Assembly: GCA_963826535.1 (NCBI GenBank)
Contig: CAWGXL010000010.1
Span: forward strand, 170,814 to 234,813
Length of the DNA: 64,000 bases
Reading direction: 5' to 3'
DNA from: an uncultured bacterium
GTDB lineage: Bacteria; Patescibacteriota; Microgenomatia; Levybacterales; UBA12049
Shown here: one piece after another, positions 16,988 to 62,037 of the stretch
How positions within the stretch are numbered: position 1 is the stretch's first letter
Layout: each line of letters begins with the position of its first letter
Made by a program: the position numbers and the translations under genes
The notes under the pieces: generated by a model
Seen by the model: only the letters and a program-made list of their open reading frames with translations
Databases searched by the model: none
Told to the model about the DNA's origin: nothing

Positions 16988-17016
16988 TTATAAAATTATA
17001 GGGTAATGTCTTAGAT

Positions 17017-17736
17017 ATGGATAATACAATAATTTCATTTAATAGTGTAAGCAAAAAGTTTCGTAGAGGCCAAAAGTTACTTTTAAAAGAAGCCTTAATC
17101 GATTTATTTTTACCCGACAAAAAGGAAGATTTTTGGGCTTTAAAAGATGTGAATTTTGAAATCAAAAGAGGTGAAACGGTCGGAATTATAGGAAATAACG
17201 GTTCAGGAAAAAGTACTATTTTGAAATTAATCGCTGGCGTGATGTTTCCTACAAAAGGGATGGTGACTGTAAAAGGACGAATAAGTCCGCTTATAGAACT
17301 TGGTGCAGGATTTCACCCGGAATTAACAGGTAGAGAAAATATTTATCTTAACGGAGCTATTTTAGGACTCACAAAAAAACAAATAGACGAACGGTTTGCA
17401 GATATTGTAGCCTTTTCTGAACTATCAGATTTTATTGACACACCTGTGAAGCACTACTCTTCCGGAATGTACATGCGGCTAGGATTTTCAGTTGCAGTAC
17501 ATACGGAACCGGAAATCTTACTTATTGATGAAATATTCGCAGTGGGGGATACAAGTTTCCAGGAAAAATGCTTCAGAAAAATGGAAGAATTTAAGAAAAA
17601 AAATGTTACAATTGTGCATGTCACCCACGATATGGCAACGGTTGAAAAATTCTGTGAAAAAGCAATATTTATCAATAAAGGCCATATAGAAGAAATCGGG
17701 AATGCCAGGCAAATTGTCAAAGAATATTTAAAATAA
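17017..17736 (+). CDS. wzt: ABC transporter ATP-binding protein of glycan exporter (no C-terminal carbohydrate-binding domain)
   Basis: Walker A GNNGSGKST, signature SGMYMRLGF and Walker B LLIDEIFAVGD. It is only 239 aa, i.e. the NBD alone. Confidence 0.9.
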   Translation: MDNTIISFNSVSKKFRRGQKLLLKEALIDLFLPDKKEDFWALKDVNFEIKRGETVGIIGNNGSGKSTILKLIAGVMFPTKGMVTVKGRISPLIELGAGFHPELTGRENIYLNGAILGLTKKQIDERFADIVAFSELSDFIDTPVKHYSSGMYMRLGFSVAVHTEPEILLIDEIFAVGDTSFQEKCFRKMEEFKKKNVTIVHVTHDMATVEKFCEKAIFINKGHIEEIGNARQIVKEYLK

Positions 17737-17930
17737 ATCTTTATACACTTCTAATTTAAAAATAAATTTTATAATACTAACATAACCCCGCTTAGCGAGA
17801 CGGCGCAGTATATATTTTTTTAGAAAAATCCCATATAATATAAAAATAATCTACAATGATCTAAAAAATAATTCAGTTTAAAGATATGTTCTCTTTGATA
17901 AGAGAGGGTGAATAAAACTAAGTCCATTAT

Positions 17931-25523: not shown

Positions 25524-28337
25524 TTAAAAGATATCAATAGTATTCCTATTAAAGTAAGGATCATTATAAATCAGATGTTTCCATTTTTTATGCAATAATT
25601 CTAGCTCTTGCTTAAAAAATAGCATATTTCTATCAGAATCTCCCGGCCGCTTCATTGTAGCAGATTCATGATGAATAAGAACTCCATGGGAAGTATATAC
25701 ATTTTGATAGCCTTTCACTAATAATTTCAGGCAAAAATCAATATCGTTAAACGCAAGTTTATAAGACGAATTCATTCCCCCTACCGCCTTAAACTTTTTA
25801 CTATCAATCATCAAACAAGCTCCTGTTACAGCTATATAATTAGCTGTACCATAAATGCCACCATTTAATTGAGCATAATCTACATTATTTTGATAATTTT
25901 TGTAAATATGCGACGGTAAAATAAGTCCATCCAAAGTAAACTTAGGATTAAAGACTATTCCTGCATGTTGAATAGTATTATCGGGATATAATAGTTTTGC
26001 TCCGACAGCGCCAACTTCTTTTCTTTGCGCGTGTTCTAATAATGCTTCAATCCAGGTAGTTGTAACGATCTCAGTATCATTATTCAGGAAAAGAAAGTAT
26101 TCCCCGTTGCTATTTTTACTGCCATAGTTACAAACGGAAGAGAAGTTAAAGGAATTTTTCCAATGTATTACTTTTGTTTGAGCATACCTATTTTGAACAT
26201 TTTCATATAATTTCCAAATGTCTTTATTCTTAGATCCGGTATCAACTATTATTAACTCGTAGTTTTTATATGTAGATTTTTCAATTATTGATTCTAAACA
26301 TGGTTTAATTAATTCATACTGATCTTTTGTTGGTATAATAATTGACACTAGCGGGTTACCAATAATATTATACTTTACTCTCCATAAACCTAGGTATTCC
26401 GTAGATATTACTTTACCTTTTAATTTCCTATTAGCTAAATCACTTTCAAGCACTTTCTTTTGATTATTGATAGCATATTTTTTAATTGTTTGAATATGCT
26501 CAGGGGAAGATGTTGATAGCGACGATTTTCTCCACGAATAAAGTATACTTGGGATATGGATAATTTTATTTTTTACATTTTTCTTTTCAGTTTCTAAAGT
26601 AGCCCGTAAAAATAAATCCCAATCTTGTGCCCCTTCATATCCTTTACGAAAGGCACCAACTTTATGTATTAAAGATTTTTTTATGACAGCAAAATGAGTG
26701 ATGTAATTTAACGAACGCAGGAAGTCCGGACTCCAATCTGGTTTAAAAAAGGGATCAATATGAGTAAACCCATCATAATCAAGCTTATCCTCATCGCTAT
26801 AAATAAATTCAACATCTCTATTCTTATTGATCACTTTGGCTACTTCATAAAGGCAGTTTGGCCAAAGTATATCATCATGATCTAGAAATCCAATAAATTC
26901 CCCCTTAGCCAAACTTAAAGCAGAATTGGATGCCTCGCAAATATGACCATTTTTCTCTCCTAAAATATACTTTATTCTTTTATCTTTTTCAGCATACTCT
27001 TTTATTTTTTCTCTTACAGCATTATCATATGAAGCATCATCTGCAATACATAATTCCCAATTATTATATGTTTGGTTGATTAATGATTCTATACACTGAG
27101 CCAAAAAATTTATCGGTGTATTAAACACAGGGGTAATAAGAGATATTTTGGGACTGTATTTTAAATTACCATTATCATTTTGTTGTCGTGATATCTCTTC
27201 CTCCGAAGGATAATGTTCCATAAACCAATTTTGGTAGCGCTGATTAATATTCAGTACATTATTCTTGACGACTTCCATGTTCGCTAATCTTTTCTCAATT
27301 CCTCTCGGTCCTTCTTGAAAGAAAATCCTTCCTATTTTAATAATTTTTCTAGGATCATGGAGAGCCTTTTTCGCGATCTTTTTTGTTTTATTAAACCCCT
27401 GCCAAAGTTTAAATGTTTTCGCGGAAATAATATTATCTAAAATCGATTGTAACTGTAGTTTTACTTCTGTCAATGTCTTGACTTCATTTCTTAGCTTTTT
27501 TATATCCTCTTCATTATTTTTGTTTAAATTAATTAATTGACTTACGCTCTGTAGATTTTTGTCCATACCTTGAATTGCTTGGTTTCTCAGCATTTCATAT
27601 TCGTATGAATAACGCATCTGGAGATTTTTTTCTAATTTTAAAAATTCATTAGCCTGCCTATTTTTATTTTTAAATAAAACTCCTAAACCGAATGAGTGAA
27701 AAAATTCAATTGTTTTATACTTAGACTTTAATTCACCCCAAAGTTTATATACTCCAAAATCATCTTCTATTACTTTTATGTCATGAAATAAAATTATTCC
27801 TTGATCGCTTACTTTGTTTCGCCACCTTTCAAAATCATGTTTAACCACGTCATAAGTGTGGAACCCATCGATATGTAAAACATCTATAACTTTATCCGAA
27901 AATTCACTTAAGGCTTCATCAAAAGTTTTTCTTAGTAATTTAATTTTTTGATCTTTATAATACTTATTTTTTATTTCATTTACTTCTTCAAAAACTTCAT
28001 TGCCATAAAAACCACTATGTTCATCGCCCTTCCAATTGTCTATAGCGTAGAGCTTAGTATTTATGCCTCCGTCTTTAACAGCTTGGCAAAATGAGAAAAA
28101 TGAGGTTCCTCTATGAGTACCTATCTCAACAACTATATTTGGTTTTAAATTTCGTATAAGTTCATATGCAAAATGTCTATGTCCATACCAAGGCCAACCT
28201 AAGTCCTCAAATTTTTCGACATATTCAAATTTTGGATTAAATATTCGCCATTTTTTATACTTTCTATTAATTGGAAGTTCGCTCATCGGGCTATATCCAA
28301 TATACTTGTTTTTTTTCTTCTGTGTTGTATCATTCAT
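25524..28337 (-). CDS. multidomain methyltransferase - coiled-coil - GT2 - GT2 glycan polymerising/terminating enzyme (WsaE-like)
   Basis: 937 aa. N-terminal class I MTase fold (IVEIGTHRGTSFF..AIDNWKGDEHSG..VLHIDGFHTYD), a ~120-aa coiled-coil region, and two GT2 domains (ISLITPVFNTP..CIADDAS and VSIIIPTKDQYEL..IIVDTGS). Confidence 0.7.
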   Translation of the reverse strand: MNDTTQKKKNKYIGYSPMSELPINRKYKKWRIFNPKFEYVEKFEDLGWPWYGHRHFAYELIRNLKPNIVVEIGTHRGTSFFSFCQAVKDGGINTKLYAIDNWKGDEHSGFYGNEVFEEVNEIKNKYYKDQKIKLLRKTFDEALSEFSDKVIDVLHIDGFHTYDVVKHDFERWRNKVSDQGIILFHDIKVIEDDFGVYKLWGELKSKYKTIEFFHSFGLGVLFKNKNRQANEFLKLEKNLQMRYSYEYEMLRNQAIQGMDKNLQSVSQLINLNKNNEEDIKKLRNEVKTLTEVKLQLQSILDNIISAKTFKLWQGFNKTKKIAKKALHDPRKIIKIGRIFFQEGPRGIEKRLANMEVVKNNVLNINQRYQNWFMEHYPSEEEISRQQNDNGNLKYSPKISLITPVFNTPINFLAQCIESLINQTYNNWELCIADDASYDNAVREKIKEYAEKDKRIKYILGEKNGHICEASNSALSLAKGEFIGFLDHDDILWPNCLYEVAKVINKNRDVEFIYSDEDKLDYDGFTHIDPFFKPDWSPDFLRSLNYITHFAVIKKSLIHKVGAFRKGYEGAQDWDLFLRATLETEKKNVKNKIIHIPSILYSWRKSSLSTSSPEHIQTIKKYAINNQKKVLESDLANRKLKGKVISTEYLGLWRVKYNIIGNPLVSIIIPTKDQYELIKPCLESIIEKSTYKNYELIIVDTGSKNKDIWKLYENVQNRYAQTKVIHWKNSFNFSSVCNYGSKNSNGEYFLFLNNDTEIVTTTWIEALLEHAQRKEVGAVGAKLLYPDNTIQHAGIVFNPKFTLDGLILPSHIYKNYQNNVDYAQLNGGIYGTANYIAVTGACLMIDSKKFKAVGGMNSSYKLAFNDIDFCLKLLVKGYQNVYTSHGVLIHHESATMKRPGDSDRNMLFFKQELELLHKKWKHLIYNDPYFNRNTIDIF

Positions 28338-30335: not shown

Positions 30336-31784
30336 TTAATTTGGTTCAAACGTTCTTTCTTTATTATATAAACTAAAACACCGGCTAAGGTCGTTATGAA
30401 AACCATTTTGGCAGTTTAAGTTAATAGCTAATAATGAAGTCCACAAAATTAGTATACATACAAAAATGATTATAAAGGCTTTGATTAAGGGTGTAGTTTT
30501 AGATGCATAGTATTTCCAAAAATATGTAAATCCTATGAAAGCTAAAATACATAATGCAAAATAAAAATCCTGATAGTAACGTCGTGCGTATCCCATTAAA
30601 GATAGCCCATAGATAGAAACTAATATCATAACTAAAAAAATAAATACTACAAATTCCAGCCTTTTTCCTTTTAACTTATTTTTTGTGATATAAACAGGAA
30701 TATAAAATATGAATAAAAGCAGAGGTGATGAAAAAAATACTGAAGATGTAAATTCAACGTCTACTAATTTAGGATAAGCTCCTACTAACCATTCCGGAGC
30801 ATCATAGAAAACATAAGGATTTGTTAATGAAGTTCGGGGGAAAAATGCTGTTAATTGAACAATGTTTAAAAGCAAATAATTTATGGAGCTAGTTTTATTT
30901 GTTAATATTCTGGTTTTTAGTTCCATAATACTAGGGTTTACATATTGTGTACCAAACTCGAAAGGATTATCAAACCGAGCCATATTGTAATGCATAAAAA
31001 TTAAACATCCAATCAAGATTGGCAAAATTAAAATACTAATTGAAAACCAAGTTTTATAGATTAAAGCACTAGAGATTTTTTGTTTTAGACTTTTATATTC
31101 ACTATAGATAATAAAAAGTAAATAAGGAAAAACAGATAATATGAGGTTTGCACGAGAAAAAAAACTTAACGTCAAAAATAGGCCGGCTAGTAATAAAAAT
31201 AAGTTTTTTTTAACTGCGTTAATTTTATCACGCTCATAAACTTTTAAAAATATAACTAATGACAAAAGAAGTAAAGTTGAACCAAAAATAATAGCTGTTT
31301 CATATACTAAATTACGCGATGATAAAAAGTACAACGAACCTAGTGCATAAATTACAAGAAAAATTAATTTTATTAGCTTAAATTCTGTTTTATTTTTATT
31401 TAATTTCAAAAATCCTGCTGTTTGTTGTAATAAAAAATAAAATAATAATAAATTAGCAGAAGATAAAAATAACGATAAAAATTGAAATGTAACCTCAATG
31501 TGGAATATATTCTTAATAATGAGCCAGGTACTTGCAGGAAGTGGCCCAAAGTAAAGATAATTTGTATGGTTGTAAAATGACCAGTCTGCGCCCGGACTAT
31601 CAGAAGGTATTCCGTATTGACCCTTTTCAAAAGCTATGGCTAATTGCTTATAATATGTACCTTGATTATAATCTTCAAATCTAAAGGTACCTTCTGTCAT
31701 ATCGTGCGCATAAATTAAGGTAAATAAAAATACTAATATAATTACAAGAATTAACTCACGATATTTTGTAAAATTGACAAACAT
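30336..31784 (-). CDS. polytopic membrane protein, candidate GT-C glycosyltransferase
   Basis: 482 aa, about 12 TM. N-terminal periplasmic loop containing FEDYNQGTYYKQLAIAFEKGQYGIP. Confidence 0.4.
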   Translation of the reverse strand: MFVNFTKYRELILVIILVFLFTLIYAHDMTEGTFRFEDYNQGTYYKQLAIAFEKGQYGIPSDSPGADWSFYNHTNYLYFGPLPASTWLIIKNIFHIEVTFQFLSLFLSSANLLLFYFLLQQTAGFLKLNKNKTEFKLIKLIFLVIYALGSLYFLSSRNLVYETAIIFGSTLLLLSLVIFLKVYERDKINAVKKNLFLLLAGLFLTLSFFSRANLILSVFPYLLFIIYSEYKSLKQKISSALIYKTWFSISILILPILIGCLIFMHYNMARFDNPFEFGTQYVNPSIMELKTRILTNKTSSINYLLLNIVQLTAFFPRTSLTNPYVFYDAPEWLVGAYPKLVDVEFTSSVFFSSPLLLFIFYIPVYITKNKLKGKRLEFVVFIFLVMILVSIYGLSLMGYARRYYQDFYFALCILAFIGFTYFWKYYASKTTPLIKAFIIIFVCILILWTSLLAINLNCQNGFHNDLSRCFSLYNKERTFEPN

Positions 31785-41584: not shown

Positions 41585-42505
41585 TTATTGCTTTAACTTG
41601 GCCGTTCCATTTAATCTCCGGGAACGGGTAGTAAGATTCATTTCAGCATTTGCTGGCTTGGCCTCTCCGTTACTTGCATGCATCTCTTTCCATGCGTCAT
41701 CAAACTGCTTGATTGTCTCAACAGTTCTTTGGCTAAACAACATTGAGGTGAGTATTTCCGGTGTAGTAGTACAAATATGTCCTCCTGCTGCGAAAGCTTC
41801 ACCTACCATCGAAGCAGTTCGAATACTGCCAACGATAATCCGTAAATTATCATATCCGCCTTCCTTCAAAAATGTAGCCACAGAACTGACAATTAATTGC
41901 GGTTGTCCATTAATTTCCGATTCAAGACCAACCCGCGGATGGTTTGCCATAAAATCAAATCTGCTGCGATAATTTGCGCTGTCCTCAATAGACCTACCCC
42001 AAAACAAACTTAAAAATGAAGTCTTTAAATTATACCGTGCTGACAATGCCGCGAGAATCATCTGCTCAAAAGTCATAATAGTCGTTACATTAACAGCTAT
42101 ATCAAGCTTAACCAATTCTCTAATAACAAACAGACTTTTTGTAGTGTCGGGAATAAGTGGCACCTTTACAACTACATTCTCAGCAAGATCCGCATATCGT
42201 CTCGCTTCATCCAGCATCTCATCAGGGGTTGCTGTACTGTCCGACAACTCAACAGAAACAGGTTTGTCTTTCATTTCAGCACAAATATCCTTCACTACTT
42301 TGATGAAATTTTTAGGCTTTACACCCTCCTTTAACATGATCGCTTGATTTGAAGTAACCCCATCAATTGCTCCGGTAGCATTCCATTTCTGGATCTCTTC
42401 AATATTTGAAGAATCTATGAAGAGTGATCTGTTAAAATTATAAGATAATCCTTTTTGAAGAGAAAGTTCACCATTGGTAATGTGCAGAATACCGGATGTT
42501 TTCAT
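41585..42505 (-). CDS. transaldolase / fructose-6-phosphate aldolase family protein
   Basis: FIDSSNIEEIQKW...GAIDGVTSNQAIM resembles the transaldolase motifs (DTA..GVTTNP). It has a ~80-aa C-terminal extension. Confidence 0.55.
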   Translation of the reverse strand: MKTSGILHITNGELSLQKGLSYNFNRSLFIDSSNIEEIQKWNATGAIDGVTSNQAIMLKEGVKPKNFIKVVKDICAEMKDKPVSVELSDSTATPDEMLDEARRYADLAENVVVKVPLIPDTTKSLFVIRELVKLDIAVNVTTIMTFEQMILAALSARYNLKTSFLSLFWGRSIEDSANYRSRFDFMANHPRVGLESEINGQPQLIVSSVATFLKEGGYDNLRIIVGSIRTASMVGEAFAAGGHICTTTPEILTSMLFSQRTVETIKQFDDAWKEMHASNGEAKPANAEMNLTTRSRRLNGTAKLKQ

Positions 42506-42562
42506 GTGGGCTTACCTATATGTATACAGAATTTCCGCAGAAATTGCAAGTAGTATTTCTTT

Positions 42563-43282
42563 TTATGTGCGTAATGCAGGATGATAGACCATTAGATGCC
42601 AAAGCAATCCTTGAAAACTTTCAGCATATGGCGTAATTGTTTCTTCGGAAATCACAGGAACCAAAATGGAAACATCCGCAACTTTTCTCGTATACCCTCC
42701 ATTCCGGCTGACAATTCCCAAAACCATTGACCCAACACTTTTAGCATATTCAACAGCCCGGACAATATTTGTACTAACCTTTTTCTCCAAATTACCTCCA
42801 CCGACCGATAAAACCATTACTGCATCTTTCTTCGACAATTTCGATCCGGTTAACCATAGAGCAAACGCAGTATCCCATCCGTCATCATTTATACGCGCGG
42901 TTAACTCAGATACATTATCTACCACAGTATATGATTCTATGTGGGCGATTTTACGGAAATCATTTACAGCATGGGAACAATTTGCCGCACTTCCGCCCAC
43001 TCCCAATAAAAATAGTCTTCCTCCTCTCTTTTTAAGTAGAGCAAGACTATTAATTGTATTTTGAATTTCTTCATGAGAAAGTTTATCAATTACTTTCCTC
43101 GCTCCCTCCAAATAATTCGAAATGAAATATTGCTTAACTTGTCCGTCGCGAAATCCCTGATTTTCTTCTCGAAGTTTTATTACCTCAGACCTTAACACAT
43201 CTATCTGGCGACGTAACGAGCTACTTGATTCTTTAACAGGTGATTGAAGATTATTTCTGATGTTATTCATATCCCTTTTCAT
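42563..43282 (-). CDS. gmhA: phosphoheptose isomerase (SIS domain)
   Basis: RLFLLGVGGSAANCSHAVNDF matches the GmhA GNGGSAAD..HFA.E motif. It has a ~40-aa N-terminal extension. Confidence 0.7.
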   Translation of the reverse strand: MKRDMNNIRNNLQSPVKESSSSLRRQIDVLRSEVIKLREENQGFRDGQVKQYFISNYLEGARKVIDKLSHEEIQNTINSLALLKKRGGRLFLLGVGGSAANCSHAVNDFRKIAHIESYTVVDNVSELTARINDDGWDTAFALWLTGSKLSKKDAVMVLSVGGGNLEKKVSTNIVRAVEYAKSVGSMVLGIVSRNGGYTRKVADVSILVPVISEETITPYAESFQGLLWHLMVYHPALRT

Positions 43283-43310
43283 TTATCAAAAAATTATAGA
43301 AATAGATTAG

Positions 43311-43339
43311 TTGATTTTTGTTTATTTTGCAAGTATCAT
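43311..43339 (+). promoter_or_regulatory. conserved promoter TTGATT-N17-TATCAT (copy 2), near-leaderless for gmhB
   Basis: Same 45-nt motif as 28481-28525. The ATG at 43359 lies ~12 nt after the predicted TSS with no SD. Confidence 0.45.
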
Positions 43340-43358
43340 TATGCAGTAAGTTTTATAT

Positions 43359-43949
43359 ATGACAAAAGCAGCATTTTATGATCGTGACGGAATTATTATA
43401 AAAATGGTATATGATTTGGAAAACGGGCTTATTGAAACGGCAAGCGCCATAGATCAGATTACATTCGTTCCCGGAATAATTAACCTCCTCAAGCATACGG
43501 CCAGCTTGGGATATAAAAATATAATAATCTCAAATCAAGCCGGTATCGGCATAAAAAAAATAAGCGAAGAGAAGTTTAATTCAATTAGTGATGAAATGCT
43601 GGAGAGATTAAGAAAACAAGGTGCAATAATAGACGCGCAGTATTATTGTTTCCACCATCCCTACGCAACAATAGAGAAATACAAAAAAAAATGCGACTGC
43701 CGCAAACCCAAACCTGGTTTACTTCATCAAGCCGCAAAAGAGCACGAAATAGATCTTAAAAAATCCTGGATGATCGGCGACAGTGTCAATGATGTACTAG
43801 CAGGTGAAAAAGCCGGATGTAAAACAATTCTTCTGGCAAATCTTTATGAATCCGAGTATCTCCATATTTTGGAAGAGAAACTTCAAGGAACAAAACCCGA
43901 TTATTTGATAAAGAAATTAAAAGATGCCATTAGCATAATCAAAAATTAA
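43359..43949 (+). CDS. gmhB: D,D-heptose 1,7-bisphosphate phosphatase (HAD-IIIA)
   Basis: DRDGII motif I, the CDCRKPKPG zinc/loop motif and GDSVNDVLAGEKAG motif IV. Confidence 0.85.
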   Translation: MTKAAFYDRDGIIIKMVYDLENGLIETASAIDQITFVPGIINLLKHTASLGYKNIIISNQAGIGIKKISEEKFNSISDEMLERLRKQGAIIDAQYYCFHHPYATIEKYKKKCDCRKPKPGLLHQAAKEHEIDLKKSWMIGDSVNDVLAGEKAGCKTILLANLYESEYLHILEEKLQGTKPDYLIKKLKDAISIIKN

Positions 43950-43953
43950 CTCT

Positions 43954-44715
43954 ATGAAAGCCATCATTATCGCCGGAGGCAAAGGAGAACGACTTCGTCC
44001 TCTCACAGACACTCTCCCCAAGCCAATGATTGAAGTAGCTGGCAAACCAATTATCGAACACATAATTAACTTACTCAAAAAAAACGGAATAACCGATTTT
44101 ATTTTTTCTCTCTGTTATTTACCCATTAAATTTAAAAACTATTTTGGAAATGGCAAACGATTTGGAATTAATATTCAATACATATACGAAAATGAAGCCT
44201 CCCCCCTTGGTACTGCCGGAAATTTGTCATTAGCCCGCGATTTAATTGACTCAACATTTATTGTTACTTATGCTGATATTTTACGGGATCTAAATATCGC
44301 TGATATGATCAAATTTCATAAAAACAAAAAAGCATTTGCCACACTTAATATTTATAAACGTTTTGGTGAAAATCCCAAAAGCAGTGTGTTGTTTGATAAA
44401 AATAATAAGATTACAAATTTCCTCGAACGACCAAAACCAAATGAACTTAATAATAACTTCGTCTGGGCAAACGGCTCATTCTACATTTTCGAACCTGCTA
44501 TATTTAATTTTATTCCGCATAACAAATTTACAGATTTCGGCAAAGACGTTTTCCCCAAACTCCTTAAAGACGGAAAAAATCTCTACGCCTATCCTTCAGA
44601 TAGTTTTTTTGTTGACATTGGCAATCATGAAAAGCTTGCCCAAGCTTCTGAAATGCTAAAATCTAAGAAGACAACTTTGGAGAAAGAAACGCCAACCAAA
44701 CCCCGGCTCCAATGA
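43954..44715 (+). CDS. hddC: D-glycero-alpha-D-manno-heptose 1-phosphate guanylyltransferase (sugar-1-P nucleotidyltransferase)
   Basis: MKAIIIAGGKGERLRPLTDTLPKPM nucleotidyltransferase signature. 253 aa. It is located with gmhA/gmhB/hddA. Confidence 0.65.
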   Translation: MKAIIIAGGKGERLRPLTDTLPKPMIEVAGKPIIEHIINLLKKNGITDFIFSLCYLPIKFKNYFGNGKRFGINIQYIYENEASPLGTAGNLSLARDLIDSTFIVTYADILRDLNIADMIKFHKNKKAFATLNIYKRFGENPKSSVLFDKNNKITNFLERPKPNELNNNFVWANGSFYIFEPAIFNFIPHNKFTDFGKDVFPKLLKDGKNLYAYPSDSFFVDIGNHEKLAQASEMLKSKKTTLEKETPTKPRLQ

Positions 44716-45541
44716 TCAACACCCCGCCAATTATAACTTGCATTGATGGAGTTTCATTTAATAATATTATTCCGTACAGTATAGCTATCACCGGCTCACT
44801 CTTACCAAGTATTGAGGCATGAAGTGCTCGTGTTTGTATCAGGCCAGAAATATGAATAGCTGAAGCGATAACCGCAAAGATAATGCCAAATATTATAAGA
44901 GGAACAAAGTCTTGATTAGTAACATTGAATCCGCCAAATAAAAACATAAAAGGAAACATCATAATAACACTAAATGTATATCGCCAAAAACTTATAGTAC
45001 TTATCGTTAAACCTCTCTGGCTGGTAAGTCTAAAAAAAATAATTATAAGAGCATAAAAGAGAGCAGATGCAAGACCCAAAGTTATTCCCAGCAAATCCTG
45101 CCCGCTCTGCAAACTAATACCATTCCAATAAATGATTACTAGTCCCAAAATCGACACAACTAAAGCAGTCCATTCATATTTATTAGTTTTTTCTTTCAGA
45201 AAATATGGAGCTAGGAAAATAAGAAAAATCGAAACCATCTGATGCGGCAATGCCGTATTGGCAATAGAAGTCAAGCGGAAAGCCTGAAAATACATAAGAT
45301 CATTTGCAACAGCAAAAATCGCGAGCCCAAGAAGAAAAAGCAAATCCTTTCTATTTACCCACAACAAATTTCGTTTCAATGCAATCAGAAAAAATGAGAT
45401 AGCACCAACTAATTGGAAAAAGAAGAGAAATGAAATAGTAGGGATTGCAGGAAAAGCCCTGAGAAAAAGTGCGTAACTCCCAAAAATTAGCATCGCTATA
45501 AGAATAAGAGAGTCACCCTTTGCTTCCTTTGACAACTTCAT
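44663..45541 (-). CDS. EamA/DMT superfamily transporter
   Basis: 292 aa, ten TM, with duplicated EamA-like halves. Confidence 0.55.
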   Translation of the reverse strand: MKLSKEAKGDSLILIAMLIFGSYALFLRAFPAIPTISFLFFFQLVGAISFFLIALKRNLLWVNRKDLLFLLGLAIFAVANDLMYFQAFRLTSIANTALPHQMVSIFLIFLAPYFLKEKTNKYEWTALVVSILGLVIIYWNGISLQSGQDLLGITLGLASALFYALIIIFFRLTSQRGLTISTISFWRYTFSVIMMFPFMFLFGGFNVTNQDFVPLIIFGIIFAVIASAIHISGLIQTRALHASILGKSEPVIAILYGIILLNETPSMQVIIGGVLIIGAGVWLAFLSPKLSS

Positions 45542-45558
45542 ATAAGCCTTGATAATTA

Positions 45559-46536
45559 CTAACTTAAATTAATAAGCACCTTACTCCCTTCCCAATCAAA
45601 ACTAACATTTCTTTCTTCCAGCCCAATACTATTCATTCTTTGACGAAATTTGTTTTTATTTTTATTCACATAAAACACAAACCAGCCCCCGCCGCCTGCG
45701 CCCATAATCTTCCCTCCAAGGGCTCCTGCCTTCATCCCTTCTTTATACCATTCATCTATCTTCGAATTTGTAGAACTTGATTGACGGGTTTTTATTAACC
45801 AATGCGCGTGGAGTGTTGCGCCATATTCGTCAACTTTTCCCGATAGTAGATATTTTTTAGCAAGTTGCCCTAATTCTTTAATATCATCATACATATTAAT
45901 AAACTTTTTTGAATTTTCATCTTTTTTCATAACCGACTTTTTTCCCTCTCCATGTATTTTTGCCGTCTCATGCTGCATTCCGGTTCTGAAAAATAAAAAA
46001 TTACTTTCGAGTTGCGTTATAGTATCAACCGATAAACGCAGGGGAGTGACTGTAACTCGTCCTTTTTTATCAAGTTCAAAATAATTTATTCCTCCAAATG
46101 CCGTTATATACTGATCCTGCGGCCCGACAGGTTTTTGCAAACGATCAATCTCAATTTCGCAAGCCTCTTTTGCCAATTGAAGTGCTGACACCGGCTCTTT
46201 TTTATAAGCATGAAGGGCATGAAGCAGACCGACTTCAAAAGCTCCTGACCCCCCAATCCCTGATTTGCTCGTTGCCTCCGACATAGTTGAAATCTCAATC
46301 CCTTTTTTGACACCAGTCAAATCCAGACATTCTCTTACAATTGGATTTTGTAATTTTTTATAATCATTGGTTACTGTAATTGTTTCGCCATCGGAAATTT
46401 TTAACAGTTTAGGTTCCTCGAATTTACAAAGTGTTATAAAAATATATTTATCAATTGCAGCACTGATCCATGCCCCGCCTCTTAACTTCGCATACCAAAG
46501 AAGATCTGTCCCGCCTCCTGCCAGAGTAATTCTCAT
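45559..46536 (-). CDS. hddA: D-glycero-alpha-D-manno-heptose 7-phosphate kinase (GHMP kinase)
   Basis: MRITLAGGGTDL N-terminus and a GGSGAFEVGLLHAL GHMP motif. The start is taken at the internal Met (46536), because the 45-aa upstream extension has no homology. Confidence 0.7.
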   Translation of the reverse strand: MRITLAGGGTDLLWYAKLRGGAWISAAIDKYIFITLCKFEEPKLLKISDGETITVTNDYKKLQNPIVRECLDLTGVKKGIEISTMSEATSKSGIGGSGAFEVGLLHALHAYKKEPVSALQLAKEACEIEIDRLQKPVGPQDQYITAFGGINYFELDKKGRVTVTPLRLSVDTITQLESNFLFFRTGMQHETAKIHGEGKKSVMKKDENSKKFINMYDDIKELGQLAKKYLLSGKVDEYGATLHAHWLIKTRQSSSTNSKIDEWYKEGMKAGALGGKIMGAGGGGWFVFYVNKNKNKFRQRMNSIGLEERNVSFDWEGSKVLINLS

Positions 46537-46594
46537 TGGAGTTTTAGTAATAATCACAAAAATTATTCTAGCACAATACATTCCTTTACAAAAG

Positions 46595-46616
46595 CCGATT
46601 TGTATCGTAAAATCGG
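46595..46616. promoter_or_regulatory. inverted repeat CCGATTT-N8-AAATCGG in divergent intergenic region (candidate operator)
   Basis: Perfect 7-bp arms. It lies between hddA (-) and the HD-domain gene (+), just upstream of the likely ATG at 46627. Confidence 0.3.
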
Positions 46617-46626
46617 TTTTATTCAT

Positions 46627-47469
46627 ATGCCACGAGAAACATTTGTAGCTATTCGAAATCTTATAGCTCAATCTGAACCCATACCACCTGACCTGGCAGC
46701 AAAAGATGAGTTAAACAAACAGAAAGCAAAAACCTTTGATAGAATTGCCCAAGCTAACATGGGAGCTATGCGTATATTAAAGGAAGGTGGGGTTTTAGGC
46801 GGTGGGCCATTTGGTAAAGAAGCTAAAGAAACAGGATGGAGAAATGTTGGCGAACACAATGGCGCAGCATTATTTGTGTCACGTCCAATCGGAGAGCTTT
46901 GTGGTCTACCGCGAGGTGAGCAAAGAGAGCTTGAACATGCTGCTGGTATGCATGATTATGATAAACGGATACAACTAGAAGAGAGCAAGTTGGGGAAAAG
47001 AAGAACTTCTGAAGGTATAATGATCATAGAATATGATGCAAGTAAAGTAGCTCAAGATGAAGTTGATAATACAGGATTAGTCGGAGTAACAAAGGGCGAT
47101 TTAAGAGGACACGAAAAGTGGGGATACCAACAAATGGCTCTACGTTATACAGACTCAATTCTTGTCCCAATACCTAAAACTGCTCATACTGATATAGTTC
47201 ACTGGAGAGACAGAATTAATGAATTAAGAAAAAGACATCCCGATGCTGATAAAGAACAAGGTAGATTATACGGCGAGGGAGTACGATTCTATGACGTACT
47301 CGAGCGGATTATGGAAGAAATTGAACCTAAACTGTATGAAAGAGCAATTCTGGTCCGCCCTGAATTAAGAAAAAAATATCCAAGATCAGATATGTATTTT
47401 CAAATAGTTAAAGATCGAATTATGGCAAATATAAAAAACACGCCGTTAAAAACTCAAAAAGCTTCTTAG
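46627..47469 (+). CDS. HD-domain metal-dependent phosphohydrolase
   Basis: H...HD motif (NVGEHNGAALF ... EHAAGMHDYDK). ~42% GC versus ~31% in the surroundings. The start at ATG 46627 is preferred over the TTG at 46600. Confidence 0.55.
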   Translation: MPRETFVAIRNLIAQSEPIPPDLAAKDELNKQKAKTFDRIAQANMGAMRILKEGGVLGGGPFGKEAKETGWRNVGEHNGAALFVSRPIGELCGLPRGEQRELEHAAGMHDYDKRIQLEESKLGKRRTSEGIMIIEYDASKVAQDEVDNTGLVGVTKGDLRGHEKWGYQQMALRYTDSILVPIPKTAHTDIVHWRDRINELRKRHPDADKEQGRLYGEGVRFYDVLERIMEEIEPKLYERAILVRPELRKKYPRSDMYFQIVKDRIMANIKNTPLKTQKAS

Positions 47470-51272: not shown

Positions 51273-51866
51273 ATGGTAGACAAAACAGGTAAAAATCTTA
51301 CAACTGAAGAAATTAGGCAAAAGGCATCAAATAGATTAAATACTATTCTCCTTGAATTTCAAGTTTTTCTTCTACATATTGTTGGATTATTGCCCTCCCA
51401 TGATCTTCGCAGATTTTTCTACCGTTTAGCCGGTATCGAAATAGGAAAAGGGAGTACGATCCATACGGGAGCCAGATTCTATAACCCTGCTAATATAAAA
51501 ATAGGACAAGATACTATAATTGGCGAAAATGCTGTACTTGACGGACGCGATAAATTAGTTATCGGTTCGCATGTCGGCATAGCAACTGATGTTATGATTT
51601 ATAATTCTGAACATGATATTGAAAGCGATAATTTTCTCGCAATTCACAAACCTGTATTGCTCGGAGATTATATATTTATCGGGCCAAGGGCTATTATCCT
51701 GCCTGGAGTAACTATTGGCAGAGGAGCGGTTATAGCTGCAGGTGCAGTTGTAACCAAAAACGTAGACCCGTTTCAAATTGTTGCCGGTATTCCTGCAAAA
51801 GTAATAGGAGAAAGAAGCCGCAAGGATTTACACTACAAATTAGGAAGGGCAGCATGGTTTCGTTAG
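51273..51866 (+). CDS. sugar O-acetyltransferase (left-handed beta-helix, hexapeptide repeat)
   Basis: Hexapeptide repeats IGQDTIIGENAVL..IGSHVGIATDVMI..IGRGAVIAAGAVV. Confidence 0.75.
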   Translation: MVDKTGKNLTTEEIRQKASNRLNTILLEFQVFLLHIVGLLPSHDLRRFFYRLAGIEIGKGSTIHTGARFYNPANIKIGQDTIIGENAVLDGRDKLVIGSHVGIATDVMIYNSEHDIESDNFLAIHKPVLLGDYIFIGPRAIILPGVTIGRGAVIAAGAVVTKNVDPFQIVAGIPAKVIGERSRKDLHYKLGRAAWFR

Positions 51867-51934: not shown

Positions 51935-54691
51935 ATGAAAAAGTTATTACATTTTTACGATAACTACGCTTTAAAAATAGGTATCGCATTTTTAATAATT
52001 TTTACAGCTCTATACCCGAAGTTACCCAGCGTGCATATCATCAGAACTTGGGTATACATCCGGCTCGAGGATTTTTTTATTCTGGCTATAGTCATTTTAT
52101 GGATAATACAACTTCTAAGAAGAAAGATAAATTTACCCATTGCCGTGAGTATTCCGATAGCAGTCTATTGGCTAATTGGATTTTTATTGCTTATTTTCTC
52201 GATAATCTACATCGGCCCCTATTTAACAAATTTTTTTCCTCACGTCGCAGCTTTTAATTATTTTCGAAGAATAGAATATATGATCCTCTTCTTTGTAGCT
52301 CTTTCCACAGTTAGAAGTATTAAAGATGTTCGTGACTATACTATTATACTTTCGCTGACCACGCTTGGCGTGGTTTTATACGGATTTGGACAGAGATTCT
52401 ATTTGGACTTATGGACCAGGTTCCCCGCTTTTTTTCAACAAAATTCCTTTTGTTTCCCCTCATTTCAGACAGGAAATGAAGAATTCGCCAAAGGCATGCC
52501 ATTGTGTCTCCAAAAGGCCGCAAGACTTACCTCAACATTTGGCGGACATTACGACCTTGCCGCTTACCTCGTACTTGTAATACCGATTCTATTAACAGTC
52601 GCTTTAAGTGTAAAAAAACTCTCAATCCGCATTCTCACTTTCCTTTTATTTCTAGGTAATCTGATTTTACTTATTTTCACCTCTTCCAGGATCTCATTCA
52701 TCTCATATCTCGCGGCAGTAATATTTGCTCTGATTTTTTATAAAAAGAAATTATTTATCATTCCAATAATCATTATAAGTGTCGTTTTGTTGGTTATATT
52801 TAGCGAATCAACAGCCAAACGCTTATTAGCAACGTTTAGACTAAGCTCGGTCGTGACAAATATGCAAGGACAATTAATAGGCTTAGCGCCGGCAAATTTG
52901 TCTCCTGAACTACAGAAAAAACTAAATGAAAACCAAACACAAACGCAGTTACAAACTCTACCATTTGGATCCGGCTACTTAGGCTTGCCACAAAAAGCTG
53001 TACCTGTTGCTACAAGTGTTGCGGTCGTCAACAAAACCCTTACCCCGGAAGAAATACGAAGACTAAAATTGCAGAGTGGAAGTCTCGAATTGTCTACGAT
53101 TTCAGGTAGCTTTCTAATCCGCAAAGTGCTTGTCTATGATATCTCTTTTACAACAAGATTTCAGGCAGAATGGCCAAACGCCTGGAATGCATTCCTTAGG
53201 AATCCGGTATTAGGCAGCGGCTATTCAACTATTACACTAGCAACTGACAATGATTACTTCCGCGCGCTGGGAGAAACAGGATTGCTTGGGCTTCTCTCAT
53301 TCTTATCTATTTTTCTAATACTCGGAATCACTCTAAAAGAAATTAGCCCTTCTATAAATAAACCGCTTATCAAAGCATTCGTCTTCGGTCTTGCCGGTGG
53401 TACGATCGGCCTTATGATTAACGCGATGCTCATTGATGTATTTGAAGCCTCAAAAGTAGCTGAAAACTTATGGATATTACTCGGAATAGGGACAGGAGGA
53501 TTACTCCTTTTCAAAAAGAAAACTGTACCGTATTGGCAGATACTAAAAAAAGTTTTTACATCAAACATATTTATTTCCATTTATTTATTCGTGCTTATTT
53601 TGACCGTCTACCTGGGAAGTATAAATAATTTCTTTGTAGCCGACGATTTTACTTTATTGCGTGAAGGAGCCTCATCTTCAACAGGTGATTTCGTGAAATA
53701 CTTTACGGATTCTCAAAATAACATTTATGCGCCGATAGCCAAAATAATTGTTTTTTTGCTATATACTCTTTTCTCTTTCCAGCCCCAAGGCTATCATGTA
53801 TTTATTTTATTCTTACATTTCGCGGCCACTTTAGGAGTTTTCTTTCTCGCTCAAAAATTATTGAAAAAAAGATTATTGGCGTTTCTTTCAGCGCTTGTCT
53901 TTTTAGTGTATCCGGTTAGCGGTACTTTTATCTTCTGGTTTTCAACTATTTCAGTGACTCTCGCTACAATTTTTTGTATTTATGCTTTAATCAGTTTCAT
54001 CAAATTTAAAGAAAGCAAATCACGCACCGCCTATATTTTTACGTTTATATTCGCAGTTTTTGCCTTCCTATCACACGAACTCTCTCTGATTTTACCGTTT
54101 CTCTTAATTGCCTGTGACTTATTTCTCTTCAAACAAAAAAGAATTAGTAGAAGATTGCTTATTTACTTGCCGTTTTTTATCCTCATACCTATTTATCTTA
54201 TTATTCTCTATCTTACCCACGCGTCTCCTTATATTCCACATTTAAGCTTAGTTTACCCTGCATCAATCGGCTTAAGTATAATCACAATTGTCATTTTAGA
54301 TATAATTAGCAATTTTCTCACAAAAAATAGAGGATCAATGTCAACTCTGCCATTAATAGTACTTACAATAGTAATTTTAATTGCCTCCTACATTGAAATA
54401 CAAAAACAAAATAATACTTGGCAAAAAGATGGAAATATCACCAAAAATATATTAACTGATCTAAGGGTAGATTATGAAGGATTTAGTAAATCAACAAATG
54501 TATATTTTGTCAATGTACCGATTCAGACCGGCTTAGCAGATAGTTTATGGTTTATCTATCAAAATAATAACCCTGTTGTCCACCAGGCATCAAGCGTTGA
54601 TGAGGCAAAAATGCATATTTTAAATAACAATAAAGTTGATAATTATATTTTTATTATCCAAAAAGATGGAAGAATAAAAGAAGCAGAATGA
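51935..54691 (+). CDS. fusion protein with N-terminal Wzy_C (O-antigen ligase / O-oligosaccharyltransferase-like) domain and C-terminal GT-C-like polytopic domain
   Basis: 918 aa. Residues 1-530 are paralogous to 13264..14673 (IRLEDFFILAI, ATDNDYFRALGETGLLG). Residues ~560-918 add ~10 further TM and an FFVADDFTLLRE loop motif like the PMT/ArnT first-loop acidic motif. Confidence 0.6.
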   Translation: MKKLLHFYDNYALKIGIAFLIIFTALYPKLPSVHIIRTWVYIRLEDFFILAIVILWIIQLLRRKINLPIAVSIPIAVYWLIGFLLLIFSIIYIGPYLTNFFPHVAAFNYFRRIEYMILFFVALSTVRSIKDVRDYTIILSLTTLGVVLYGFGQRFYLDLWTRFPAFFQQNSFCFPSFQTGNEEFAKGMPLCLQKAARLTSTFGGHYDLAAYLVLVIPILLTVALSVKKLSIRILTFLLFLGNLILLIFTSSRISFISYLAAVIFALIFYKKKLFIIPIIIISVVLLVIFSESTAKRLLATFRLSSVVTNMQGQLIGLAPANLSPELQKKLNENQTQTQLQTLPFGSGYLGLPQKAVPVATSVAVVNKTLTPEEIRRLKLQSGSLELSTISGSFLIRKVLVYDISFTTRFQAEWPNAWNAFLRNPVLGSGYSTITLATDNDYFRALGETGLLGLLSFLSIFLILGITLKEISPSINKPLIKAFVFGLAGGTIGLMINAMLIDVFEASKVAENLWILLGIGTGGLLLFKKKTVPYWQILKKVFTSNIFISIYLFVLILTVYLGSINNFFVADDFTLLREGASSSTGDFVKYFTDSQNNIYAPIAKIIVFLLYTLFSFQPQGYHVFILFLHFAATLGVFFLAQKLLKKRLLAFLSALVFLVYPVSGTFIFWFSTISVTLATIFCIYALISFIKFKESKSRTAYIFTFIFAVFAFLSHELSLILPFLLIACDLFLFKQKRISRRLLIYLPFFILIPIYLIILYLTHASPYIPHLSLVYPASIGLSIITIVILDIISNFLTKNRGSMSTLPLIVLTIVILIASYIEIQKQNNTWQKDGNITKNILTDLRVDYEGFSKSTNVYFVNVPIQTGLADSLWFIYQNNNPVVHQASSVDEAKMHILNNNKVDNYIFIIQKDGRIKEAE

Positions 54692-56148
54692 AAAAAATTC
54701 ACACTATAATACTTATATTAATACTAGCAGGTGCTTTTATTGTTCGTTTACACGGATTTTATAATCCAATAGCCGACTGGCATGCTTGGCGTCAAGCTGA
54801 TACTTCCGCAGTATCAAGAAATTTCATCAATAACGGCTTTGACCTGCTACACCCCAGATTTGATGACCTTTCCAATGTGCCATCCGGTAAAGATAATCCT
54901 CAAGGCTATCGTTTTGTAGAATTTCCGATATATAATATATTCCAAGCCTTTTTCTACAAAGAATTCGGCATTTTCTCACTTGAGCAATGGGGCAGACTCG
55001 TTACGATCATCTCTTCATTGCTTTCAATTATTTTTATTTATCTCATCGTAAAAAAATATGCTGATGATATCTCAGCTATTTTTGCGGCATTTTTCTTTGC
55101 TTTTTTACCGTACAACATATATTACGGAAGGACAATCCTCCCGGACACTATGATGGCAATGTCAATACTTGGAGGAATTTATTTCTTTGATAAATGGTTA
55201 GATAGGATTATTCCTAGACCAATTACCAGGGTGTGGATAACTAGCGCGGCAATATTTACAGCCTCCGCCTTACTTCTCAAACCTTATGCAATTTTTTTCA
55301 CCTTACCCATGATATATCTAGCCTTTTATAAATTAGGCATAGGTTTTGTGAAAAAGTGGCAGCTTTGGATTTTCTTGGTTCTAGCTATCACACCGTTAAT
55401 ATTATGGCGAATATGGATGACTTATTTTCCTGAAGGAATTCCTGCCAGTGAATGGCTTCTAAACGGAGGCAATATCCGATTCAAAGGTTCGTTTTTCTAC
55501 TGGATTTTTGCCGATAGAATTGGCAGGCTCATGTTAGGATATTGGGGACTCATAATTTTTAGTGCTGGAATTTTGGCAATAGGGCGAAAAAAATTACTTA
55601 GTAAGAATTTATTTTTCTTAACTTTTCTACTTTCCTCGCTATTATATATTGTAGTTTTTGCCAGAGGCAATGTGCAACATGACTATTATCAAATACTTAT
55701 TGCCCCAACTATCGCAATTTTTCTCGGACTTGGCAGCGGGTTTCTTCTTACCCTCCCCAAGGAATATTTCCACCGCAGTGTAGGGTTTATTCTTCTTTGT
55801 ATTAGTGCTATTTTTACCATACTTTTCGGTTGGTATTTTGTTCGTGATTATTTCAATATCAACAATCCTTCAATTGTTGTGGCAGGGGAAGCTGTAGACA
55901 AGCTAATTCCTAAAAACGCGAAAGTTATCGCCATACTTCATGGATCTGAAGGAGATACAACGTTTTTATATCATACAAACCGAAAGGGTTGGACAAGTTT
56001 CCAAAATCCTCTTCCGGAAATGACAACAAAGGGTGCGGATTATCTGATTTTTGCCAACCCTACAATAGAAGATCAAAATTTCAAAAAAAACTATAAATTA
56101 GTCACCTCAACTCCCGAATATATTATTTTTGATTTGCACAAAAAATGA
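54688..56148 (+). CDS. GT-C membrane glycosyltransferase (PMT_2/ArnT-like)
   Basis: ATGA overlap with the upstream gene. 486 aa, polytopic. First-loop motif ADWHAWRQADTSAVSRNF. Confidence 0.6.
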   Translation: MKKIHTIILILILAGAFIVRLHGFYNPIADWHAWRQADTSAVSRNFINNGFDLLHPRFDDLSNVPSGKDNPQGYRFVEFPIYNIFQAFFYKEFGIFSLEQWGRLVTIISSLLSIIFIYLIVKKYADDISAIFAAFFFAFLPYNIYYGRTILPDTMMAMSILGGIYFFDKWLDRIIPRPITRVWITSAAIFTASALLLKPYAIFFTLPMIYLAFYKLGIGFVKKWQLWIFLVLAITPLILWRIWMTYFPEGIPASEWLLNGGNIRFKGSFFYWIFADRIGRLMLGYWGLIIFSAGILAIGRKKLLSKNLFFLTFLLSSLLYIVVFARGNVQHDYYQILIAPTIAIFLGLGSGFLLTLPKEYFHRSVGFILLCISAIFTILFGWYFVRDYFNINNPSIVVAGEAVDKLIPKNAKVIAILHGSEGDTTFLYHTNRKGWTSFQNPLPEMTTKGADYLIFANPTIEDQNFKKNYKLVTSTPEYIIFDLHKK

Positions 56149-61374: not shown

Positions 61375-62037
61375 ATGTACACTAAAATTAAAAAAAAATA
61401 TCCTTACAAGTTCTTAAAAAGAACAATAGATGTTGTTTTCACCATAATTCTACTGATCATTTTCTCACCTGTTATAGTCGCAGTCGCTCTAGCTATCAAA
61501 ATAAATTCACCGGGCCCTGTTTTTGCCGATACGCCTGAAAGAGTAGGAAAAAATGGAAAGAGATTTAAGATGTACAAATTCCGGTCTATGATACAAAATG
61601 CTCACCAAATGTTACGGGAAGACCCAAAGTACTTGGAGCTATTTAACAAATACAAAAAAAGTAGTTACAAGTTAAAAGATGATCCAAGAATTACCTCTGT
61701 AGGCCGCTTTATTCGCAAGCACTCTCTTGATGAAATGCCTCAATTTTTTAATGTTTTGAAGGGGGAAATGAGTATTGTCGGTCCAAGAGCTTATTATCCG
61801 GATGAACTTGAAGAACAACAAAAAAAATATCCGTATACCAAAAAAGCTGTAAAAATTGTGATATCAGTAAAACCTGGCATAACCGGTCTCTGGCAAGTCT
61901 CAGGGAGAAGCGATATCAATTTTGATAAGCGCATTCAAATGGATGCGGAATATGTAACAAGACGATCAATAAGATACGATCTATGGCTTATTTTAAAATC
62001 TCCCTGGGCTATGATCTCCGGCAAAGGAGCCCTATAA
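61375..62037 (+). CDS. initiating polyprenyl-phosphate phosphoglycosyltransferase (Bac_transf, PglC/WbaP C-domain type)
   Basis: Single N-terminal TM, then PGPVFADTPERVGKNGKRFKMYKFRSM ... MSIVGPRAY ... PGITGLWQVSGRSD. Confidence 0.85.
   Translation: MYTKIKKKYPYKFLKRTIDVVFTIILLIIFSPVIVAVALAIKINSPGPVFADTPERVGKNGKRFKMYKFRSMIQNAHQMLREDPKYLELFNKYKKSSYKLKDDPRITSVGRFIRKHSLDEMPQFFNVLKGEMSIVGPRAYYPDELEEQQKKYPYTKKAVKIVISVKPGITGLWQVSGRSDINFDKRIQMDAEYVTRRSIRYDLWLILKSPWAMISGKGAL

Follow-up and report, generated by a model that had tools for sequence, protein, structure and literature searches.

A widespread Wzy_C and GT-C_A fusion protein of Levybacteria and other Microgenomates, with a GT-C module that is probably eroded or repurposed in its short form

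The window analysed here, a 64,000-nucleotide stretch of an uncultured Levybacterales genome (contig CAWGXL010000010.1 of GCA_963826535.1), contains a 918-residue open reading frame (ORF) that encodes a genuine two-module integral membrane protein of predicted glycosyltransferase function, in which an N-terminal Wzy_C module with the WaaL fold is continued by a membrane module of the GT-C_A fold and a small C-terminal alpha/beta domain (Table 1). We consider the protein to be best explained, with a probability of about 0.6, as a two-module transferase whose GT-C module has become eroded or repurposed in the window's copy. Each of the two parts has its place in a known superfamily and public databases contain many such fusions, and the architecture is apparently undescribed: an earlier reading of the bare sequence (the original prediction) had been aware of no described architecture of this kind, and our full-text search of the literature, of incomplete coverage and hence giving absence of evidence only, likewise found no description of a Wzy_C plus GT-C_A fusion. 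Bacteria of the candidate phyla radiation (CPR, or Patescibacteria) are ultra-small and mostly uncultured, and the construction of their cell surface is largely unknown. The fusion family, a syntenic pairing, found across the lineage and as yet unannotated, of two great classes of polyprenyl-dependent outer-face transferase, WaaL/Wzy-like and PMT/ArnT-like, provides concrete candidates for a CPR surface glycoconjugate pathway, and a natural and testable single-chain combination of an en bloc transferase with a GT-C_A enzyme.

The ORF lies where it had been predicted, on the forward strand and with zero internal stops, and direct reading of the junction DNA revealed an open frame throughout, with neither stop nor frameshift. 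The Lys-rich junction linker, FKKKTVPYWQILKKVFTSN, has five Lys/Arg residues, versus two Lys/Arg and six Asp/Glu residues in the next loop. A protein identical to the fusion (P0011) is present on a 494-kb public contig, and when the whole protein was searched against ~5.8 billion proteins, 2417 matches were obtained at E≤1e-10, the best 120 of which, drawn from NCBI, JGI, ENA and Logan assemblies, are all 858-1082 residues long and cover 81-100% of the query. Where these relatives carry names at all, they are called 'O-antigen ligase family protein' or 'hypothetical' only. Since the frame across the junction is kept in more than 100 independent assemblies, the missed stop that the original prediction had worried about is excluded. 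G+C content differs between the two modules (0.29-0.33 in the C-terminal module DNA versus 0.375-0.42 in the Wzy_C module DNA; 53500..54700), and the lower value could reflect relaxed constraint or plain amino-acid composition.

To gauge the distribution of the fusion, we scanned one genome per species with the outer-loop motif FCFPSFQTGNEEFAKGMPLCL as search pattern and retrieved 73 loci, mostly in metagenome-assembled genomes (MAGs) of Levybacteria/Levyibacteriota, Gottesmanbacteria, Microgenomates and 'Patescibacteria group', from which 69 complete ORFs could be re-derived. Continuous fusions of at least 850 residues are encoded by 65 of these 69, whereas the remaining four loci (L002, L010, L072 and L077) are interrupted, with ORFs of 120-395 residues before the break, and are possible pseudogenes or assembly errors. 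We found no support for the idea that a sequencing or assembly error deleted a stop between two adjacent genes: the breaks of these four fall inside the N-terminal module and none at the junction; together with the read-through at the window's own junction, the identical protein on the public contig and the uniform size of the 120 relatives, this makes such an artefact exceedingly improbable. The original prediction had termed the fusion unusual, a description that does not hold, as on the evidence of these loci it is the standard architecture in Levybacteria/Microgenomates, and 571 protein clusters match the profile of its C-terminal module at E≤1e-30 (see below). Many contigs bearing the gene cassette around the fusion (loci L006-L078) are titled 'uncultured Gammaproteobacteria bacterium', and others Methylomirabilota, Eisenbacteria or Lysobacterales; such titles are likely placeholder names or mis-binned bulk MAG taxonomy.

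Residues 20-519 of the fusion align with the stand-alone Wzy_C protein of the same window at 31% identity (E 1e-58), and the alignment spans the common motifs IRLED and LATDNDY.RALGETG, bearing out the paralogy that had been proposed on the strength of both motif sets. As the original prediction had advised, we ran hidden Markov model (HMM) searches on the two halves separately: the Pfam Wzy_C model (PF04932, cut-off 31.7 bits) scored 31.3 bits with the N-terminal half, 28.9 bits with the whole fusion and 36.0 bits with the paralog, and matched 43 of 45 relatives at E≤0.1, while neither Pfam, PMT_2 (PF13231) included, nor NCBIfam had a match in the C-terminal half. NCBIfam matches were weak throughout, the paralog matching models for a putative O-glycosylation ligase and a repeat-unit polymerase and the fusion matching IctB only. 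An AlphaFold2 (AF2) model of the full-length protein reached a mean predicted local distance difference test score (pLDDT) of 78 and a predicted template modelling score (pTM) of 0.76, confidence being low for the large outer loops, and its top Foldseek match in the PDB is WaaL (7tpg_B; probability 1.00, E 1.1e-3, TM-score 0.52 normalised to WaaL). One of the outer loops holds the motif FCFPSFQTGNEEFAKGMPLCL with its two invariant Cys residues, which is absent from the stand-alone paralog and lies in a part where AF2 confidence is low.

Because neither half of the fusion nor the paralog had a match in the PDB by sequence or profile search, residues were mapped onto WaaL by a single weak hhalign segment and by motif patterns. 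By these means R252 of the fusion aligns with R215 of E. coli WaaL and R408 is the probable counterpart of R288; both residues, like D438, occur without exception in the 121 family members. The essential Arg residues are R215 and R288 in E. coli WaaL and R224 and R298 in PglL (PMC3643930), and the catalytic His is H338 in WaaL, H349 in PglL and H324 in PglS (PMC3643930, PMC12800693). A regular-expression scan for the strict-His motif H[NSQ]x9Gxx[GTY] found it in neither the fusion nor the paralog; instead, an Asp (D438 and D379, respectively) occupies the His position at identical spacing, as a comparison of HNEIIEAGSLKGLMG at 338 of E. coli WaaL with DNDYFRALGETGLLG at 438 of the fusion and DNDYLRALGETGVIG at 379 of the paralog shows. 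Thus, the N-terminal module combines the WaaL fold and probable counterparts of its Arg residues with an Asp that replaces the canonical His, a testable variant of the WaaL/PglL catalytic motif.

Set against WaaL (Cupriavidus metallidurans, 7TPG; E. coli K-12) and PglL/PglS, the fusion is alike in its fold; it also has Wzy_C profile matches, just below the cut-off in its own case, and an invariant Arg weakly aligned with R215, and it agrees with them in the x[NSQ]x9Gxx[GTY] motif and in a locus that likewise holds a polyprenyl-phosphate initiating transferase. It differs in the invariant Asp at the position of the catalytic His (H338 in WaaL, H349 in PglL; PMC3643930, PMC12800693), in a conserved Cys-containing loop of its own subtype, FCFPSFQTGNEEFAKG, in its covalent continuation by a GT-C_A module and in having no sequence-level match to the solved structures. 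Given its taxonomy, the host, a CPR bacterium, would not be expected to have a lipopolysaccharide core as acceptor.

The C-terminal half, modelled alone from 59 sequences, was predicted with very high confidence (pLDDT 93.9, pTM 0.92), and its top 32 Foldseek matches in the PDB are all of the GT-C_A fold (ArnT, PglB, STT3, Pmt1/2/4, AglB, DPY19 and Emb), the best being ArnT 5f15 (E 6.7e-4), at query-normalised TM-scores of 0.40-0.57. Its nearest non-fusion relatives by phmmer are PMT_2 proteins, some of them with tetratricopeptide repeats (TPR), at E 1e-8 to 3e-11, and hhalign matched the C-module profile to one such PMT_2+TPR protein (P0008) with 98% probability (E 1.9e-13, 298 columns); P0008 (28.9 versus 26.1 bits) and P0010 pass the PMT_2 threshold. 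The GT-C likeness that the original prediction had read from the sequence is thereby upheld, as is the position that it gave for the acidic FFVADDF motif: in the AF2 models the module's first helix (544-564) is directly followed by FFVADDF (566-572), so that the DD motif opens the first outer loop, as in PMT_2 proteins, and by two short helices (571-580 and 583-591). D571 is invariant in all fusions and in the distant PMT_2/TPR relatives, and D570 is retained in 98% of the long forms of the fusion (defined below) versus 31% of the short forms. Among the 45 relatives, PMT_2 itself is matched by only two and PTPS_related by four, and the window's module is tied to PMT_2 indirectly, through P0008.

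A search of 1.84 billion representatives, clustered at 50% identity, with the C-module profile gave 571 clusters at E≤1e-30, fused and stand-alone, rising to 28,007 at E≤1e-10. Among the top matches are fusions of ~1000 residues and stand-alone proteins of 450-550 residues that start at the module's first helix. Such stand-alone CPR relatives (P0149, P0145, P0157 and others) belong to the same family (C-module profile matches with E as low as 1e-131) and, unfused and full length, carry all motifs of the long-form fusions and the same C-terminal domain; a Pfam scan of those that we checked gave no match. Thus, the C-terminal half represents an independent GT-C family, invisible to annotation by Pfam and NCBIfam and here fused behind Wzy_C. 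We also considered that the module might be a recent duplicate of the adjacent PMT_2 gene, and rejected this since neither BLASTP nor hhalign shows any similarity between the two.

Combining the AF2 helices with the positive-inside rule, we predict ~12 transmembrane (TM) helices in the Wzy_C module, a cytoplasmic linker (525-543), the Asp-Asp (DD) loop outside, ~9 helices in the C-module and an outward-facing alpha/beta domain. The ~10 TM helices that the original prediction had counted in the C-terminal half come close to this, the difference being that ~9 helices are followed by an alpha/beta domain of ~65 residues. Under this topology both presumed active sites would face the same outer side, which would fit polyprenyl-linked donors. 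The C-module resembles ArnT (5F15/5EZM), PglB, STT3, Pmt1-Pmt2 (6P25) and Pmt4 in overall fold, in the first helix, in a long outer loop that contains two short helices, and in the acidic DD at the start of that loop. It differs from the solved GT-C_A enzymes in sequence (10-17% identity, E ~1e-3) and in having ~9 rather than 11-13 TM helices. With the PMT_2+TPR proteins (P0008 and P0007; JGI label 'protein O-mannosyl-transferase') the C-module family has the motifs F.DD, YRP, HP.H.E..W, GxDYS and RY.Y.A in common; those proteins bear TPR repeats where the fusion bears the alpha/beta domain, with Wzy_C in front, and in comparison with them the window's copy is without the GxDYS and RY.Y motifs and without the R and E residues. 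The PMT_2+TPR architecture recalls the eukaryotic TMTC O-mannosyltransferases.

The 120 relatives fall into two size classes, 104 long forms (963-1082 residues, mostly ~1010-1050) and 16 short forms (858-935 residues), the window's copy being one of the latter. At residues 764-768 of the window's protein, after the seventh helix of the C-module, the long forms have ~96-110 extra residues that comprise an outer loop with GGDYSY and two TM helices ending in GNIAxRYxYLAS. Consistent with a deletion at this point, an HMM of the long-form C-domain matches the window at profile positions 1-234 and 345-497 only (~110 positions missing), and a tblastn match with a long form breaks at nucleotide 54223. 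Moreover, the window's copy has A599, T664 and H714 where the long forms have R599, E664 and Y714, and is thus without the full set of YRP Arg, H.E..W Glu, YE, GGDYSY loop and RY.Y.AS, each of which has a conservation of 95% or more among the 104 long forms. Of the N-domain positions that reach this level of conservation in long forms (n=147), 97.9% are retained in short forms, versus a C-domain retention of 31% for D570, 12% for W574, 6% for W577, 0% for F596, 12% for R599, 38% for E664, 0% for Y714 and 12% for R758. Residues of the fold type or of the C-terminal domain (D571, P600, H621, W668, W829 and W872) are kept in short forms, and the alpha/beta domain itself is kept in short and long forms alike, with W829, G866, W872, F873 and Y875 present in 16 of 16 short forms.

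The ratio of C-module to N-module identity is 0.69 in the short clade versus 0.78 in long forms, and at an N-identity of 0.55-0.70 (mean 0.637 for short pairs, 0.594 for long pairs) the C-identity is 0.39 versus 0.45; by this measure the short clade shows faster evolution of its C-module, relative to the N-module. Members of 858-881 residues have lost a further 30-45 residues. In a neighbour-joining tree of the N-domain 14 short forms make up one clade, which led us to reject the short form as a private degenerate allele of the window's genome, and the other two lie beside a long form, which hints that the loss occurred twice. A search of the window with the long-form HMM found no stand-alone C-module gene that could compensate. 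One contig (JBGGGZ010000238.1 of GCA_041643235.1) bears both a long form (1019 residues) and a short form (870 residues). There, the long form sits between a GT2 and a GT4 gene, resembling the GT2-Wzy_C-GT4 context of the window's stand-alone Wzy_C gene, and the short form sits in a Hexapep-fusion-PMT_2-GT2 context that matches the window's fusion. The long forms, ~920-residue forms and ~870-residue forms make up a natural series in which the GT-C module is eroded step by step, and which could serve to separate the parts of a GT-C enzyme that are needed for catalysis from those needed for structure.

Because ~110 profile positions as well as R599, E664 and Y714 are lost, active single-sugar decoration by the window's reduced copy is doubtful: the covalent Wzy_C and GT-C fusion of the original prediction stands, whereas the second activity that came with it does so less well, and the window's GT-C module has probably ceased to be a transferase of the conventional kind. 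Several points weigh against such a loss of activity. Both Asp residues of the DD pair are retained in the window's copy, as are H621, E715 and the conserved C-terminal domain; no short form has a substitution at D571; and the short module, kept in frame at ~48% pairwise identity, is thus under selection for something. The conserved GT-C_A core comprises seven TM helices, so that a version with nine could in principle still be catalytic, and the donor-binding role of the deleted segment is assigned from general knowledge of ArnT and PMT enzymes. The Wzy_C module, too, is without its canonical His, which is why its chemistry is not certain.

These points lend some weight to a doubtful alternative, in which both modules are active in the window, ligating a glycan and, before or after this, adding one sugar taken from a polyprenyl-phosphate donor through a trimmed yet working GT-C module: the DD pair is in place, the predicted core fold matches ArnT, PglB and PMT, the module has stayed in frame throughout a clade of 14 or more sequences, and its C-terminal domain is conserved. 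What speaks against it is that the missing segment includes GGDYSY and GNIAxRYxYLAS, which long, stand-alone and TPR-PMT_2 relatives have in common, that three further conserved residues (R599 being that of the YRP motif) are replaced, and that 11 of the 16 short-clade sequences have replaced the first Asp, some members being shortened further still. We therefore favour an eroded or repurposed GT-C module in the window's copy, which may, given the selection on it and its DD pair, have residual or altered activity.

From the folds, homology, distribution, synteny, deletion and residue losses above we infer the following activities, donors and acceptors. The first module would take a polyprenyl-diphosphate-linked glycan, built by the Bac_transf initiating enzyme and the GT2 and GT4 enzymes of the locus, at the outer face of the membrane and transfer it en bloc to an acceptor or polymerise it, using the invariant R252 and R408 and, in the usual place of the His, Asp438. 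The second module (~544-846 plus the small outer alpha/beta domain) has its ancestor in the PMT_2/TPR-PMT branch of GT-C_A enzymes. In the long forms (~1020 residues) it is probably an active polyprenyl-phosphate-sugar transferase, because the full set of conserved polar residues is kept, and would act on the same product alongside the adjacent PMT_2 protein. Coupling of ligation to decoration is thus plausible for the family and its long forms. In the window's copy, a Wzy_C-type transferase would carry a GT-C module that is intact in structure yet has had its catalysis eroded or been repurposed; this module might serve the adjacent PMT_2 protein as a scaffold, or bind the acceptor through the retained C-terminal domain. 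More tentatively, the long-form fusion and the adjacent PMT_2 protein might together form a CPR-specific outer-face machine that attaches and decorates a surface glycoconjugate from polyprenyl-linked donors through an Asp-variant WaaL/PglL site, with the GT-C module of the short clade serving as a pseudoenzyme scaffold or regulator of PMT_2, an arrangement that would resemble the catalytic/non-catalytic pairs of other GT-C complexes.

A different reading of both modules, in which the first is a Wzy-type polymerase and the GT-C module a non-enzymatic partner in all forms (controlling, for example, chain length or the acceptor), strikes us as unlikely. It can draw on Pfam Wzy_C spanning polymerases as well as ligases, on the Asp that replaces the His of the ligases and O-oligosaccharyltransferases, and on the weak and divided NCBIfam matches described above. 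However, the polar set of the long-form GT-C module (DD, R, E, YE and RY.Y) is common to the stand-alone and PMT_2 relatives, which argues for catalysis; WaaL is the best fold match, though no solved Wzy polymerase is among the listed matches for comparison; and neither a Wzx-type flippase nor Wzz was found in the window, where an ABC-2 exporter is present.

Table 1. Positions in the window of the fusion gene, its parts and related genes
Feature	Position	Strand	Basis
Whole fusion ORF: Wzy_C module, GT-C_A module and small C-terminal domain	51935..54691	+	918 residues; ORF listing
N-terminal Wzy_C / WaaL-fold module, residues 1-530, ~12 TM helices, large outer loops	51935..53524	+	Pfam, paralogy, fold match
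FCFPSFQTGNEEFAKGMPLCL, residues 172-192, outer-loop motif that marks the fused subtype, with two invariant Cys	52448..52510	+	Near-invariant across 121 sequences
R252, aligned with E. coli WaaL R215	52688..52690	+	hhalign of family profile with E. coli K-12 WaaL, weak (E 0.034)
R408 in FTTRFQAEWPNAW, probable equivalent of R288 in WaaL	53156..53158	+	Motif pattern only, no alignment
DNDYFRALGETGLLG, H[NSQ]x9Gxx[GTY] motif with Asp438 replacing His	53246..53290	+	Regular-expression scan
Junction, Lys-rich linker, probably cytoplasmic, residues 525-543, FKKKTVPYWQILKKVFTSN	53507..53563	+	Direct sequence reading, AF2 secondary structure
GT-C_A-fold membrane module, short form, residues 544-846, ~9 TM helices	53564..54472	+	AF2, Foldseek, hhalign
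FFVADDF, residues 566-572, start of first outer loop	53630..53650	+	Reading of sequence, AF2
Deletion scar, residues 764-768	54224..54238	+	Alignment of 120 relatives, HMM, tblastn
C-terminal alpha/beta domain, residues 855-918, predicted outside membrane	54497..54688	+	AF2 strands and helices
Hexapeptide-repeat acyltransferase directly upstream of fusion	51273..51866	+	Pfam Hexapep
Adjacent PMT_2-type GT-C gene	54688..56148	+	Pfam PMT_2, 38.5 bits
Initiating phosphoglycosyl transferase Bac_transf, same glycan locus	61375..62037	+	Pfam, E 9e-63
Stand-alone Wzy_C paralog, 469 residues, Asp replacing catalytic His	13264..14673	-	Pfam Wzy_C, 36.0 bits

The fusion gene lies in a cassette of conserved order, hexapeptide acyltransferase, fusion and PMT_2 gene: a homologue of the acyltransferase is found at most 1.5 kb upstream in 65 of the 69 loci, and a PMT_2 homologue at most 300 nucleotides downstream in 56 of the 69. 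In the window, the stop codon of the fusion and the start codon of the PMT_2 gene overlap by four nucleotides (ATGA, 54688..54691), and overlaps or very short gaps between the two genes recur in many related loci, which suggests translational coupling. The window as a whole is one very large glycan locus, with nucleotide-sugar genes, many GT2 and GT4 glycosyltransferases, methyltransferases, the ABC-2 exporter, a YfhO-like protein, other GT-C proteins of the PMT_2 type and Bac_transf, the last being the probable source of the polyprenyl-diphosphate-linked glycan.

Several other parts of the locus deserve mention. Close to the stand-alone Wzy_C gene, the genes for the ABC-2 permease (16208..16987) and ATPase (17017..17736) are followed by that for the 951-residue YfhO-like protein (17931..20786, forward strand), and the region 16208..20786 has the appearance of a glycopolymer route that depends on an ABC transporter. 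Upstream of the stand-alone Wzy_C gene lies a GT2 gene split in two frames on the reverse strand (14983..15564, 193 residues with the N-terminal part of Glycos_transf_2, and 14670..14972, 100 residues), and a related contig (L004) has an intact GT2 of 293 residues at the same position; the split (14670..15564) is probably a frameshift, reflecting either a pseudogene or a sequencing error. Four ORFs of 480-565 residues (3785..5326, 5323..6948, and, on the reverse strand, 7148..8842 and 30336..31784) match neither Pfam nor the C-module HMM, in a locus that is rich in GT-C genes. A multidomain protein of 936 residues (25524..28337, reverse strand) joins a methyltransferase domain to two GT2 domains. 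Finally, the genes at 41585..46671, which encode transaldolase-like, SIS-domain, HAD phosphatase, nucleotidyltransferase, EamA transporter and GHMP-kinase proteins, resemble a heptose-type nucleotide-sugar pathway, and the same gene set is also present on the related contig L004.

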